Source: Thelocarpon superellum
Lineage: Eukaryota
NCBI GenBank assembly: GCA_026025795.1
Contig: JAPEUG010000051.1
Location: 1 to 64,000 of the forward strand
Length of the DNA stretch: 64,000 bases
Direction: 5' to 3'
Part shown: one piece after another, positions 49,308 through 62,430 of the stretch
How positions within the stretch are numbered: position 1 is the stretch's first letter
Layout: each line of letters begins with the position of its first letter
The notes under the pieces: generated by a model
Told to the model about the DNA's origin: nothing
Databases searched by the model: none
The model's input: only the letters and a program-made list of their open reading frames with translations
Translations under genes and position numbers: made by a program

Positions 49308-51208
<1,901 letters not shown>

Positions 51209-56976: not shown

Positions 56977-57310
56977 ATGGCGGACCTCTACTTTATTCTC
57001 ACCATGGTTATGGCCATCTTTACCATCCTCACCGTCGCCCTCGTTGGCGCATGGTACGGAGGGTACCTCGAACCGATCATCGTTCGCGTGACCAAGTTCA
57101 TCTTCATCTACAAAGCCAAGGCCGAAGAAAAGGCGTTGGAGGCGCAGGGGAAGAAGGCTGGGGTGGATTTCGTCAAAGGTACCTTTCCTCCGACCCCACT
57201 CTCGCATGATATCCGCGGCACGTGCTCACTGATCAACAGGGGACTTGCATGGAAACAAGCAAGCCGACGCCGTCGAAAACGAGGGCTTGGGCGCACTGAA
57301 GAAGCTCTGA
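56977..57310 (+). CDS. Small (about 90 aa) single-TM hypothetical protein
   Basis: MADLYFILTMVMAIFTILTVALVGAWYGGYLEP..YKAKAEEKALEAQGKKAGVDFVK. A canonical intron (GTACCT..CTGAT..CAG, 57179-57239) then gives GDLHGNKQADAVENEGLGALKKL*. Confidence 0.65.
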
Positions 57311-57618
57311 TAATATTGGCACGATTCAAGCCCTGATCCTGCTGCGATTTGTGGAGAAAAATGGAGCCTGCTGTACTTCTGTGCCGATGGTAGAATGTAA
57401 ACTGGTGTTGCGGCTGTGCAAAAACAAACGATAGACCTACATGCCTGTGAAGTTTAGCTGCACAGTTTTTGGACAGAATAGCATTCTCTGGAGACCGGAA
57501 ATTAAAGTCGATGAGGTAGAAAGATCCGCCCAATGATGCAAGTACGGATGATAAATCCGATGTTGAGGAATAAACTTGAGTTGAGTTTATATAATAGAAT
57601 AGGCCACTTAACTCGACC

Positions 57619-57804
57619 GGCTCAATGGTCTAGTGGTATGATTGTCGCTTCGGGATTTCATCGCCTGAGTGTTAGAAGCACTCTTCTGCGGTTACACTTT
57701 GGTGAAGCCATAGAAAAATGTGACAGGTCCCGGGTTCAAAGTAAATCTTTCATCCTAACTCCTTTGACCCATTAACTTACTGTTCGTTAGTCCCGGTTGA
57801 GCCC
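57619..57804 (+). tRNA. tRNA-Pro(CGG) with a canonical 37/38 intron (57655-57718) and a second 50-nt GT-AG insertion in the T-loop (57741-57790)
   Basis: Acceptor stem GGCTCAA/TTGAGCC, A-box TGGTCTAGTGG, anticodon stem GTCGC/GTGAC around TT-CGG-G..T, variable loop AGGTC, T-stem CCGGG/CCCGG, T-loop TTCAAA^T. Removing both inserts gives a standard 72-nt eukaryotic tRNA-Pro. Confidence 0.9.
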
Positions 57805-57821
57805 CAACTCAACTTGCCTTC

Positions 57822-57827
57822 TTTTTT
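57822..57827 (+). terminator. RNA polymerase III terminator (T6)
   Basis: Six-T run starting 18 nt after the tRNA discriminator base. Confidence 0.75.
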
Positions 57828-58114: not shown

Positions 58115-60214
58115 ATGGTTCTCCAAGACTTCTTTCTCCCCAAGACGAGCGCTTCAAGTCGAAAAGCACGCCGCGGCTTGTCGTGGAGCTCCTCGTCCTT
58201 GACGCGCTCCTTTCCGGCCCGCGCCCCAGCCCAAGATGCCAGGTACATTTGGGACGAGGCGATGCTGGAGGAGGAAAAGTCGCCAGAGGAGGCGGATCTG
58301 AAAACGCTCAACGGCTCTCTCGCTCTGCTGGCCTCGATCTTCCCGGACGTGCAGCCCGAGGTCTTCCGAGAGATGCTCTCCAGCTACGGCGAGGAGAGCA
58401 GGCTGCATGTTGTCACGGAGGCGCTCCTCAAACACAAGGCCAAGTGGGTGCGAGGTCAGTGGCGAGTACCCGGGAAAGACGGTCCTGCGGGACCGACGAG
58501 ATCAGCGGCGGCGTCAGCAAATGCTGGCGGGGCAATGAGCCTCGCGGTCGAGGAGCGCTTTCGCAGTGAACCCTACAAAAGAGCGGTACGCGGGGCTCTC
58601 TACCAGGAATTCCGAGATCTATCACACTCCGCCATCAACGCCGTGCTTGCCGAGCACAACTACTCCTATACCTTGAGCCGGCCGACGCTCGTCGCCCTCT
58701 CCTCCAAGTCATGGCGCTCCTCGCTCTCCTCCTTCTTCACGCGACGCAAACCATCCGTGTCCATGTCTACGGCGGTCAACCCGCTGCTCGTGTGGCGCCT
58801 GGTCGAGGGCGGGACGGACGAGTCGATCCCGATGCTACGGAGCACGGGCTCCGCCGAGCTGGACCGAGAACTGTTTGAGTCCTTGATTCGCCCCCTACAG
58901 CAGACCACCAAGGAGGCCAAGGAAGACCGAGACCACGAGATGGCGCTGCAGGCAAACGAGGCCGAGGCCGAGGCGGTCAACGCCATGTACGAATGCGGAT
59001 GCTGCTTCTCATCGACGACATTTGAACAGATGGTGGCCTGCGACCGAGGGGGGCACTGCGTTTGCTTCAGCTGTGTACGCCACGTGGTCCAGGAAGCGCT
59101 CTTCGGGCAGGGCTGGGCAAAGAACGTGGATGGGGGTGGCAAACTCCGGTGCATTACACCCATGCCGGACGATCGACTGGACTGCGAGGGCCGCATCCCC
59201 TCCGACTTGCTTCATCGAGCTCTAGTGGAAGAACGCGGAGGGGAAGAGGTGTGGCAGAAGCTGGAGGAACGAGTCGCCAGCGACGCATTACAAAAGAGCC
59301 AAGTCCCGCTGGTACGATGTCCGTTCTGCCCCTACGCCGAGGTGGACGACGTCCAGATCCACGCGTCGAGCGACACGTGGCGCATCAAACGAGCGGGCAT
59401 GTGCTCGCTCACGACCATTCTCCTAGTCATGGTGTCGGGGGCCTTTTCCTTCTTCCTCTCCTTCTTCCTCCTCATCACCATCCTCACGCTTCTACACCCC
59501 TCGACTCCCTCCCTCCCCGCCCAACTTTCCACGCAGCTCTCCGCCTCACTCACGCGCCTGGCCCGACGCCGACGCGGGCTGAAATTCACATGCCAATCGC
59601 CCATGTGCGCCCGGTCCTCGTGCATGTCATGCGAGAAGGAATGGCGCGACATCCACATCTGCTACGAGTCGGAACGGCTCGCGTTGCGCGCACACGTGGA
59701 ACGGGCCATGTCATCAGCGGTCAAGCGGACGTGTCCAAGATGCAATCTCTCCTTCGTCAAGGCATCGGGATGCAACAAACTGACGTGCGTGTGCGGGTAC
59801 CACATGTGCTACGTTTGCCGCAAGGAGATTGGAAACGAGGGCTACCGGCACTTCTGCGAGCACTTCCGGCCCAAGGGCGCCGGGGCCTGCGAAGTCTGCG
59901 ACAAGTGCGACCTGTACCGCGCCGAGGACGAGGCGCGCGCGGTGCGCCAGGCGGCGGAGGACGCGGAACGCGAATGGCGCAGCAACGAGACCGGTGCAGG
60001 CGGCCGCGCGCTCGAAGATTGGCGGTGGGAACGGCGGGATGACTTTGCCGGCACGAGTGGCGGCTTGAGCGGCATCGGCAGTGGTAGTGGCGGTGGGGCA
60101 GGTGCAACGTGGCTCCGGCCGAGTACATGGCAGGGCTGGACGCATCTTCAGAAGAAAAGCGCAGCACAAGATGCGTTTGACTGGCTGGTGGAGAATCTGG
60201 TGGAGCTCCCATGA
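58115..60214 (+). CDS. RBR (RING-IBR-RING) E3 ubiquitin ligase, RNF216/TRIAD3-like, with N-terminal CUE-like region
   Basis: LASIFPDVQPEVFREML (CUE-like). RING1 ECGCCF..C..GHCVCFSC. IBR CPFC...CQSPMC..SCMSC...HIC. RING2 RTCPRCNLSFVKASGCNKLTCVCGYHMCYVCR. Single 699-aa ORF. Confidence 0.92.
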   Translation: MVLQDFFLPKTSASSRKARRGLSWSSSSLTRSFPARAPAQDARYIWDEAMLEEEKSPEEADLKTLNGSLALLASIFPDVQPEVFREMLSSYGEESRLHVVTEALLKHKAKWVRGQWRVPGKDGPAGPTRSAAASANAGGAMSLAVEERFRSEPYKRAVRGALYQEFRDLSHSAINAVLAEHNYSYTLSRPTLVALSSKSWRSSLSSFFTRRKPSVSMSTAVNPLLVWRLVEGGTDESIPMLRSTGSAELDRELFESLIRPLQQTTKEAKEDRDHEMALQANEAEAEAVNAMYECGCCFSSTTFEQMVACDRGGHCVCFSCVRHVVQEALFGQGWAKNVDGGGKLRCITPMPDDRLDCEGRIPSDLLHRALVEERGGEEVWQKLEERVASDALQKSQVPLVRCPFCPYAEVDDVQIHASSDTWRIKRAGMCSLTTILLVMVSGAFSFFLSFFLLITILTLLHPSTPSLPAQLSTQLSASLTRLARRRRGLKFTCQSPMCARSSCMSCEKEWRDIHICYESERLALRAHVERAMSSAVKRTCPRCNLSFVKASGCNKLTCVCGYHMCYVCRKEIGNEGYRHFCEHFRPKGAGACEVCDKCDLYRAEDEARAVRQAAEDAEREWRSNETGAGGRALEDWRWERRDDFAGTSGGLSGIGSGSGGGAGATWLRPSTWQGWTHLQKKSAAQDAFDWLVENLVELP

Positions 60215-60246
60215 GGATGAAGTATTTACTTAATCGTATGCCTATA

Positions 60247-60287
<41 letters not shown>

Positions 60288-60313
60288 CAACCATCATCAC
60301 AACCATCATCATC
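60247..60313. repeat. (CAT)n microsatellite with CAC/AAC interruptions
   Basis: About 13 perfect CAT units followed by (catcacaac)-type units, between two convergent genes. Confidence 0.95.
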
Positions 60314-60331
60314 ACTGTACTTCCGTACGCA

Positions 60332-61732
60332 CTAGGTCAGATTGCGGCGCAACACCGCGTTCCCCCCCTTCTTCATGGACACCAGCACGCCCTCGACAGC
60401 GGCGCGTTTCCGCGCGACGGCCTCCTCACGGATCCGTATCTCCTCTTCAAAGTCTCGTGCCACATTCCGCCGGCGCTCGCGCGCCGCCGTGCGCCGCGCC
60501 ACGTGGTCCGCGAAGCGCGCGACGAACCAGTCGCCGCATTCCTCCCACGTCTGTGTGCTTAGCGCGTTGCAGAACCCGCGCTGCTCCGTCTCTGCTTGCG
60601 TCGCCATGTGCGATAGCTGCTCGGAAAGCGGTAGGGCTGCCTGTGCGCTGGATAGGGCGTATGTGGGCCCCGTGGCCGAGGGATCCTCGTCGAATGTCTC
60701 CGCTGCGAGCGTTGCGTAGGTCATTCGTGACAGTGTCGCAGGGCTGTAGTCTAACTTGGTCTCGGGCTCCATTTGGTGCCGTGCGGGCCCGCCGTGGCCT
60801 CCTGCCTTTCCTGAGGCGGGCGAGCCGGAGGCATCGTCGTCGAGGTCGTCCTCTGCGAGATCGCTGGCGTCAAATACGTTGTGGTCGTCGCTTTGGGGAG
60901 CTTGCGTCCCTTGGTGGTGTACGCGTGATGGATCCAGGGCCTTCTTGACGACGCTGGTGCGATGTCGGTGGCTCTTCTCCCCTTTGTGGCCTCGGAGCTC
61001 GAGGAGCTGGTCCGGTGGATCTTGATTCTCCGTCTGCGCCTCTGCGCGGACATTCGATCGTCCGCGACCGCTGAGAGGGGGGTCTGCACGACGTCGCTCG
61101 TTCACCTTGTCCGTCTCTCGCCGTGCCTCGGCCATCTGCTCTTTCGTAAACGTCATCGTCGGGTCCTCTTCCACCGGCATATCTTCCTCGTCTTCACTCT
61201 CGCTTTGCTCGAGGGCGCTGGCTTCCTCGATCGCTTCTACGGGCGAAGCAGCCGGGGAGAGAATTCTGGGGGGCGCCATCGGCCGGAGATTTTCCGCCAC
61301 GATCCGGGAGGGACGGTGCATGGCCAGTCTCACTCCCGGCCCAGGTGGCCTCGAGAGCTGTCTCGGCACGTCTTGAATCCCTGCAGACATGGTGGCCTCA
61401 CTTCCGATTGTCGACTCGTCGATCTGGTCCACGTCGGTGTCGTAGACGTCTCCGCCTGGGCCGGGTCCGTTGTTCGCCCACTGCCTTTGCACCATGGGCT
61501 GGTCCTCTCGCGTCCTCACTGTGGATGTTGATCCGTGCCGCACTGGTGCGGCCCATGCGCGTGGGGCCGTGGCGGGCTCGTGTGACTGTGGCGTCTTTCT
61601 CAGCAGCGGGTACGCCTGGCTTGCTTGCTCCACGACACCAGCAGCTGCAGGCTCGTCGTGTGTTGGCGCGCCGCCCGATGAGATGCTGTGGTATCCATGC
61701 CCTCGGACAAAGTCTTGCATCTTCCACGGCAT
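60332..61732 (-). CDS. ECM11 (extracellular mutant protein 11) C-terminal-domain protein
   Basis: Disordered N-terminus, then LDYSPATLSRMTYATLAAETFDEDP...FCNALSTQTWEECGDWFVARF..RERRRNVARDFEEEIRIREEAV...MKKGGNAVL. Confidence 0.8.
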   Translation of the reverse strand: MPWKMQDFVRGHGYHSISSGGAPTHDEPAAAGVVEQASQAYPLLRKTPQSHEPATAPRAWAAPVRHGSTSTVRTREDQPMVQRQWANNGPGPGGDVYDTDVDQIDESTIGSEATMSAGIQDVPRQLSRPPGPGVRLAMHRPSRIVAENLRPMAPPRILSPAASPVEAIEEASALEQSESEDEEDMPVEEDPTMTFTKEQMAEARRETDKVNERRRADPPLSGRGRSNVRAEAQTENQDPPDQLLELRGHKGEKSHRHRTSVVKKALDPSRVHHQGTQAPQSDDHNVFDASDLAEDDLDDDASGSPASGKAGGHGGPARHQMEPETKLDYSPATLSRMTYATLAAETFDEDPSATGPTYALSSAQAALPLSEQLSHMATQAETEQRGFCNALSTQTWEECGDWFVARFADHVARRTAARERRRNVARDFEEEIRIREEAVARKRAAVEGVLVSMKKGGNAVLRRNLT

Positions 61733-62430
61733 GCCGAAGCTGGCTTGGTGTAATCCGGCGTTTCATCGATCGCACAGGTTCAGCGGAAGCGTGCACCGTG
61801 CCATGCGGTATTCTCGTGCCTATGGAGCATGGCGAGTAGTGCCGTGTCGTGGCACAACGTGGATCAAACGAAAAGCTTCATTGTCCTTGGAAAGATTGTC
61901 GTTGAGTGGGGAAAAGTAAACTTGGGGAGTTGGAGCTGTCACTATCCACGGGTCTTTGCATCTCTGTGTGTGAAAGAAGAATATGATTGAACATGGCAGC
62001 TATCAACACAACGAAACAATACCAGCCGCAGGCGAAGTGTTCTGACTTTCTGACTCGCGATGAGCGATCGTATCGACGGGGATGAGGGTCCGATACGCGC
62101 ATCATTCTCCTACTTAAGCACTCCGTGTGCGTCTGTACTAGACTCTGTTTCTACAGCTTTTCATCTCAAGTGCGTGAATAAAACCTCGGGTCTCGAGCCA
62201 AAGTTATTAGTCCATGGAGATATATCGGCCCAAGCTACTTTCCTGCGGCTGGACAGCGACCAAATCCGTAGGAAGTCACAAGGAAACAAAGGTCCGTGAC
62301 TACATCCCCAAGCATTCAAAATTCGCACTCAGTCCTTTTCCACTCCATAGCACAAGATCAGATGCCGTGACAAGTATAAAGTGTAACAGAACGCTCGCTT
62401 GCCAACATGAAAAACCGAGACGAAGCCATG

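Follow-up and report, generated by a model that had tools for sequence, protein, structure and literature searches.

A spliceosomal-type intron in the T-loop of a tRNA-Pro(CGG) gene that also carries a canonical tRNA intron

A tRNA-Pro(CGG) gene on a 64,000-nt stretch of DNA from Thelocarpon superellum (contig JAPEUG010000051.1, positions 1 to 64,000 of the forward strand; hereafter, the window) is interrupted twice. The gene lies at 57619-57804 on the plus strand. Its first interruption is a canonical tRNA intron in the anticodon loop, and its second is an insert in the T-loop, between positions 59 and 60, which has GT..AG ends, a donor-like start and branch-like motifs. By its anatomy, by the statistics of that anatomy and by a second case in another tRNA-Pro(CGG) gene, this insert is well supported as spliceosomal-type (GT-AG, branch-site) intron sequence. 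In the textbook division, spliceosomal introns belong to RNA polymerase II (Pol II) transcripts and to a few small nuclear RNAs (snRNAs), and tRNAs have introns that are cut by an endonuclease. That the gene is functional, with the spliceosome removing the T-loop intron and the tRNA endonuclease the anticodon-loop intron, is a tentative reading of the sequence, to which we give a little less than an even chance.

The locus is made up of the following elements.

57588-57594, plus strand: TATATAA, TATA-like, at -31 to -25 relative to the tRNA start (read from the sequence)
57619-57654, plus strand: tRNA-Pro(CGG) exon 1, with the acceptor 5' strand, the D-arm (A-box), the anticodon stem 5' strand, and CGG to G37 (ARAGORN)
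57655-57718, plus strand: canonical tRNA intron of 64 nt that follows position 37 (ARAGORN)
57719-57740, plus strand: exon 2, with position 38, the anticodon stem 3' strand, the variable loop AGGTC, the T-stem 5' strand CCGGG and the T-loop TTCAAA (positions 54-59)
57741-57790, plus strand: spliceosomal-type insert, 50 nt, at T-loop 59/60, with GT..AG ends
57741-57746, plus strand: donor-like GTAAAT, 5/6 to GTAAGT, with A for G at +5
57755-57759, plus strand: branch-like CTAAC, its A 32 nt from the insert 3' end
57764-57768, plus strand: branch-like TTGAC, its A 23 nt from the insert 3' end
57772-57776, plus strand: branch-like TTAAC, its A 15 nt from the insert 3' end
57788-57790, plus strand: acceptor-like TAG (from the sequence)
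57791-57804, plus strand: exon 3, with T60, the T-stem 3' strand CCCGG, the acceptor TTGAGCC and the discriminator C
57822-57827, plus strand: T6 run resembling an RNA polymerase III (Pol III) terminator, 18 nt past the gene (from the sequence)

When 57741-57790 is deleted in silico, ARAGORN reports a 73-nt tRNA-Pro(CGG) with a 64-nt intron following position 37. The mature cloverleaf is complete after intron removal, with the anticodon CGG and the conserved D- and T-loop bases. The original prediction for this locus had described an otherwise intact tRNA-Pro(CGG) with a 50-nt insert at 59/60, and its layout, coordinates and exons hold. It had also anticipated that standard tRNA finders would miss the gene, as they do: ARAGORN calls no tRNA in the raw 64-kb window, with or without intron mode, and Rfam at E ≤ 10 gives no tRNA match in the window, just two weak and unrelated matches.

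Relatives of the gene were collected with an exon-1 pattern. The scan of metagenome contigs gave at least 119 loci, and that of prokaryotic genome contigs gave 4 further loci, all of which are plain, intron-less genes. The set comprises 124 exon-1 matches in 123 loci, its metagenome part being the matches listed. Among these listed matches, 89 are intron-less, 26 have one anticodon-loop intron and 5 are too short, while no tRNA is called in 4 (L093, L020, L114 and L100). ARAGORN gave the wrong isotype for several of the 26 intron-bearing genes, which were inspected by eye. Exon 1 of the window gene is found letter for letter in L093, L072, L092 and L068. In L072 and L092 the T-arm is uninterrupted, and their mature sequence is 71/72 identical to that of the spliced window gene, with the one difference in the variable loop.

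The cloverleaf alone cannot set the boundaries of the insert, because ARAGORN is permissive and still gives a tRNA call for 37 of 4,646 T-arm deletions. GT..AG ends occur in only one of these 37, namely the deletion of 50 nt from 57741. Moreover, inspection of the junctions reveals that TTCAAAT followed by CCCGG, as in L072 and L092, is produced by the 57741-57790 deletion and by no other. The boundaries are therefore set by uninterrupted relatives that show what the T-loop looks like, and GT-AG removal restores the T-loop, T-stem and acceptor in the way that had been foreseen.

The motifs first named in the insert (GTAAAT, CTAAC, TTAAC, the final TAG and a pyrimidine-rich composition) are all correctly placed. 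Pyrimidines make up 33 of its 50 letters (66%), its GC content is 0.36, and it folds as unstructured sequence, with a minimum free energy of -0.7 kcal/mol (z +0.49). Three criteria were set before counting: GT..AG ends; a donor whose first six bases match GTAAGT or GTGAGT in at least 5 of 6 places; and a branch motif YTRAY whose A is 8-40 nt away from the 3' end. The window, taken on both strands, has 127,900 50-mers; 422 of them have GT..AG ends, 28 also have the donor, and 7 have the branch motif as well, some of which are presumably real introns. None of 200,000 shuffles of the insert satisfies all three. About four 50-nt deletions leave a plausible 7-nt T-loop when the junctions are read by inspection, and allowing for these the chance of finding such anatomy is near 2e-4. 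The spliceosomal-intron anatomy originally ascribed to the insert is thus far above chance. Introns of other kinds were ruled out by eye: there are no CNG/CNG loops of the IRE1 type, and 50 nt is too short for a group I or group II intron.

The window has a GC content of 0.52-0.64 per 2 kb and contains eukaryotic genes with short GT-AG introns. One of these genes encodes phosphoglucose isomerase (PGI; 49571-51208, plus strand; Pfam PGI, E 1e-83), and continuity of its reading frame together with third-position GC points to three introns in it.

49808-49854, plus strand: PGI intron, 47 nt, GTGAGT..CTGAC..CAG
50389-50434, plus strand: PGI intron, 46 nt, GTAAGT..TTAG
50684-50745, plus strand: PGI intron, 62 nt, GTGAGT..CTAAT..AAG

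Without these introns, PGI is a 494-codon frame with a single stop, presumably the terminal one. The T-loop insert resembles these neighbouring mRNA introns in size, as was first suggested (50 nt compared to 47, 46 and 62 nt), and in pyrimidine content (0.66 compared to 0.54-0.68), and it shares its TAG end with the PGI intron that ends in TTAG. Donors were compared with the three PGI introns; a pattern-based list of 18 introns was left out because it would be circular for donor statistics, and a catalogue for the whole window based on frame continuity was set aside as too noisy.

A survey of other genomes for tRNA genes split in this way had been recommended in the original prediction, and the metagenome contigs do contain a second case. 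It is L093, 628 nt of the 38,866-nt metagenome contig JAABUP010002185.1, which holds a tRNA-Pro(CGG) gene that has the exon 1 of the window gene but whose canonical intron, of 32 nt, is another one. L093 also has a 57-nt GT-AG insert in the T-stem, at 52/53, of the form GTAGGT..CTGAT..CTAG, in which the A of CTGAT is 13 nt from the end. Sliding its boundaries by one base leaves an identical product. The fungal U2-type donor consensus is GTRNGT, and the L093 donor matches it in full. After insert removal, L093 gives a tRNA-Pro(CGG) that is 72/72 identical to L072 and L092, and its mature sequence is 71/72 identical to that of the spliced window gene. The three criteria select only 4 of 127,886 window 57-mers. 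The insert is predicted to be unstructured (z +0.28). The B-box of L093, GGTTCAAATCC, is uninterrupted because the insert ends in a G that substitutes for G52. This second GT-AG insert is a new result, and it strengthens the spliceosomal-type reading of the first.

The inserts of the window gene and L093 show no significant likeness, since 129 of 2,000 shuffles score equally high. Because they are not significantly alike and lie 7 positions apart, they point to separate gains. We read the two genes as evidence that spliceosomal-type introns have been gained at least twice in tRNA-Pro(CGG), at 59/60 in the window gene and at 52/53 in L093. The flanks of L093 do not align with the window, which indicates that the two come from different organisms, and blastn and tblastx of the relatives' loci against the window give no match beyond the tRNA. 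The canonical introns of the window gene (at 57655-57667) and L093 start alike (TTTC..CGCCTG, 10/12), a likeness that is not significant over the introns as compared (155 of 2,000 shuffles score equally high). A pattern search of the metagenome contigs for the same T-loop insertion site with any filler of 30-60 nt gave 0 matches.

The insert could instead be a non-canonical tRNA intron that is cut by the tRNA endonuclease or another endonuclease, with its GT-AG ends incidental. Such introns are expected to form a bulge-helix-bulge (BHB) motif, which in its archaeal form has two 3-nt bulges at the splice sites with a 4-bp helix between them. It was modelled as an outer helix, a 4-bp central helix that opens with the pairing of anticodon and intron, and an inner helix. 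In all five canonical introns compared (window gene, L093, L072, L092 and L068) the outer helix is 4/4 and the anticodon-intron pair is kept. The canonical intron of the window gene sits at the eukaryotic site 37/38, with an anticodon stem of 4/4 and position 32 paired with the third-last intron base, as in the 4 relatives, and it is structured (z -2.80; 2 of 200 shuffles fold equally well). The T-loop insert is off that site, and the T-stem offers it an outer helix of 4/4, a point in favour of endonuclease cutting. Its central helix, however, reaches only 1/4, with T54 opposite T and unpaired, and there is no equivalent of the anticodon-intron pair. Moving the boundaries by 1-2 nt does not produce the motif either, as it leaves the central helix at 3/4 or less and breaks the outer helices. 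The explicit geometry thus agrees with the first impression that no convincing BHB is present.

Other evidence for endonuclease cutting comes from known non-canonical introns and from one relative. Position 59/60, the T-arm counterpart of 37/38, is among the archaeal non-canonical intron positions, and some eukaryotic enzymes cut non-canonical sites, according to PMC4090602. In L020 and L114 (Ga0115029_1005069 and ORXT01007552.1), one tRNA-Pro(CGG) gene with the acceptor GGGTGAT is represented on two contigs. It has no anticodon-loop intron and carries a 26-nt insert, not of GT-AG type, at T-loop 59/60, the only other T-arm insert among the matches listed. This insert passes a relaxed form of the BHB test (central helix 3/4, outer helix 4/4) and looks like an endonuclease-type non-canonical tRNA intron of another eukaryote. 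Because it passes, the test can detect motifs in the T-loop, where the window insert has none. Moreover, the window insert is unstructured, the L093 insert lies inside the T-stem and has no BHB, and chance is very unlikely to have given both inserts GT..AG ends together with a donor and a branch motif. Endonuclease cutting of the window insert is accordingly a very improbable explanation. The last gene without a tRNA call, L100 (Ga0126337_10158300), is tRNA-Pro(CGG)-like with a broken acceptor and T-arm, and serves as a contrast case of an ordinary, decayed pseudogene.

The interrupted gene is also found in contigs assembled separately from the reads of DNA run X1, where the region is present with 0 differences, although X1 is perhaps the assembly's own source. 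The depth of the X1 contigs over the insert is 104-136, similar to that of the flanks. One X1 contig bridges the 3' junction of the insert, and at the 5' junction two X1 contigs overlap by 30 letters, the bridging rule being 31 letters. Runs X3 and X4, which come from other organisms, align to exon 1; a contig of X3 has a 28-letter intron of its own and aligns no further than 57740, before the insert site. Run X2 has a match of only 39 letters, at another place. An assembly artefact or a chance resemblance could draw on the presence of the stretch in one DNA run only, and perhaps in the very run that gave rise to the assembly. Given read-built contigs that hold the insert without differences and at the depth of the flanks, the rarity of such 50-mers in the window and the independent analogue in L093, it is hardly credible.

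Apart from the two introns, the gene is intact. There are no disabling substitutions or deletions in the exons, since the sole difference from the relatives sits in the variable loop, and the A-box region is the same as theirs. The absence of any run of four or more T within 57619-57810 and the presence of T6 at 57822, both noted at the outset, are upheld. TATA-like elements are found upstream of the tRNA genes of fission yeast and plants, and by likeness to these promoters TATATAA may help Pol III (or Pol II) to start transcription. In 8 long open reading frames (ORFs) of the window with high third-position GC, CCG is the top proline codon (104/283), so a CGG tRNA would be in demand.

Several observations weigh against a spliceosomal intron in a working gene. 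The exon side of the donor reads AAA, which is poor compared to the usual AG. At +5 GTAAAT has A, where each of the three PGI donors has G, and the GC content of the insert is under the 0.43-0.60 of the local introns. The insert splits the B-box after position 59 (GGTTCAAAgta), so that positions 60-62, including C61, are lost, and from what is generally known of this element TFIIIC binding would be reduced. Only one further GT-AG case occurs among the 124 exon-1 matches listed, 27 of which are intron-bearing. In X1, a further contig aligns to 57621-57654 with other flanks and another intron. There is therefore at least one more tRNA-Pro-like gene there, which could make the interrupted copy dispensable. 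In mammalian cells, Pol III transcripts are poor splicing substrates. Finally, according to PMC4090602, a eukaryotic tRNA gene with an insertion in its D- or T-arm is usually regarded as a pseudogene.

Many of these points would fit a different history, in which an intron or introner-like element hit a redundant copy of tRNA-Pro(CGG) and the gene, unspliced, is dead or dying. The element could have been reverse-spliced and retro-integrated, could have transposed into the gene, or could be filler DNA from a break, and the exons would seem intact solely because the event is recent. This is a minority possibility, if a serious one. It can appeal to the convention on T-arm insertions, to the split B-box and suboptimal donor, to the other tRNA-Pro-like exon 1 in X1, and to the introner-like elements that create new introns in fungi, as described in PMC11282704. 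It would have to account for two genes, one with a perfect mature sequence of 72 nt and one with a variable-loop change only, whose canonical introns and flanks have diverged beyond alignment. As the exons are intact in both split genes, a dead copy would need two recent events. No further copy of the insert is present in the 64-kb window, where the longest match is 13 nt, and the window insert shows no target-site duplication. Fresh introner-like elements are longer and have a stable fold, unlike the two inserts, which are both unstructured. In addition, the window gene has retained its T6 terminator and TATA-like element, with no internal run of four T.

The splicing signals might also belong to a Pol II transcript of which the locus is part, by sense read-through or in antisense, with the tRNA gene itself not in use. 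On the minus strand, a well-formed 116-nt candidate intron over exon 2 runs from the donor in CGAACA/GTAAGT, at 57780, to the end of CTAACACTCAG, at 57665, and the window has just 13 occurrences of GTAAGT when both strands are counted. The gene also sits between two plus-strand ORFs. An unrelated transcript would leave unexplained why the plus-strand GT..AG matches the tRNA-restoring boundaries to the base, and L093, inspected by eye, is without such an antisense signal. The minus-strand ORF at 57111-57629 has no Pfam match, a Pfam scan of the ORFs flanking the tRNA finds no family, and the antisense motifs were noticed post hoc. The signals at 57665-57780 could be fortuitous or could come from an antisense transcript made by Pol II; as the source of the plus-strand intron anatomy, a Pol II transcription unit is unlikely.

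Two other features of the surroundings can be recorded here. At 57529-57586 on the plus strand, just upstream of the tRNA, there is a weak Rfam match to sR22, an archaeal C/D-box small nucleolar RNA (16.8 bits compared to a gathering value of 40, E 1.3), which is probably chance. At 60181-60948, a plus-strand frame that includes a long stretch of histidines, HHHHHHHHHHHHHHNHHHNHHHH, is open, and it overlaps a 476-aa minus-strand ORF at 60332-61762.

If the gene is functional, its maturation would involve two splicing machines. The precursor would be transcribed from the tRNA's own Pol III promoter, with its A-box, truncated B-box, TATA-like element and T6; alternatively, it could be supplied by a read-through Pol II transcript. 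The spliceosome would take out the T-loop intron first, in the nucleus, joining GGGTTCAAA to TCCCGG at the T-arm. The T-arm and the elbow would fold only once this intron is gone, and the unfolded T-arm would retain the precursor in the nucleus until then. The endonuclease, measuring from the folded mature domain, would then cut out the 64-nt anticodon-loop intron, tRNA ligase would seal the exons, and tRNA export would follow. Cutting of tRNA introns by the endonuclease and sealing by ligase are established in fungi, and the eukaryotic endonuclease requires a folded mature domain, by the account given in PMC4090602. This requirement is the reason to place the spliceosome before the endonuclease. 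Taken more broadly, it is possible, though short of probable, that tRNA-Pro(CGG) T-arms have repeatedly acquired spliceosomal introns in a filamentous-fungus-like group, and that both machines act on their transcripts, the spliceosome first and the endonuclease second. Full-text literature searches, the coverage of which leaves out most subscription-journal papers, turned up no published tRNA gene with a spliceosomal intron.

If this is true, the gene would encode the first known spliceosome-dependent tRNA, and the spliceosome would be able to act on a tRNA precursor. Encounters between Pol III transcripts and the spliceosome could then be studied in a natural system. Such a gene would also mean that functional fungal tRNA genes are under-counted by tRNA gene finders. 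Moreover, it would bear on the birth of spliceosomal introns, for example by reverse splicing into abundant RNAs or R-loop DNA. Reverse splicing, intron insertion on the transcribed strand and R-loop DNA at highly transcribed genes are discussed in PMC11146597. Should the copies be dead, this one tRNA family would still offer two independent intron-like insertions, and these would be a rare and direct trace of introns transposing into a target other than mRNA.

Among known systems, introner-like elements of fungi and algae resemble the two inserts as a mobile source of new GT-AG introns, and they could explain repeated gains. Those in PMC11282704 are in protein-coding genes and form multi-copy families. 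The window insert, in contrast, has a single copy in 64 kb, and it bears no significant likeness to the L093 insert.

Introns of mRNA type in small non-coding RNA genes are already known from the U6 snRNA. They were reportedly found in fungal U6 genes (Schizosaccharomyces pombe and Rhodotorula) by Tani and Ohshima in 1989 and 1991, in papers cited by PMC5855946. As in the tRNA genes, these are short GT-AG introns with a branch site, and U6, too, is a Pol III transcript with internal promoter elements. They have been gained independently at different positions, with reverse splicing proposed as their source, and their splicing has been demonstrated experimentally, whereas the tRNA-Pro insert is known from its sequence. 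U6 also sits in the catalytic centre of the spliceosome, which accounts for the introns in it, and a tRNA does not. In addition, the tRNA-Pro host has a second intron for another machine, and its insert cuts the B-box and the T-loop.

The tRNA genes of nucleomorphs, Cyanidioschyzon merolae and archaea, the last with introns at 59/60, resemble the window gene in having two or more introns per gene, including in the T-arm. In PMC4090602, these introns are short or BHB-bearing and are cut by the tRNA endonuclease. The window insert differs from archaeal-type introns in failing the BHB test, in being unstructured, and in having the GT-AG ends, donor and branch motifs of an mRNA intron.

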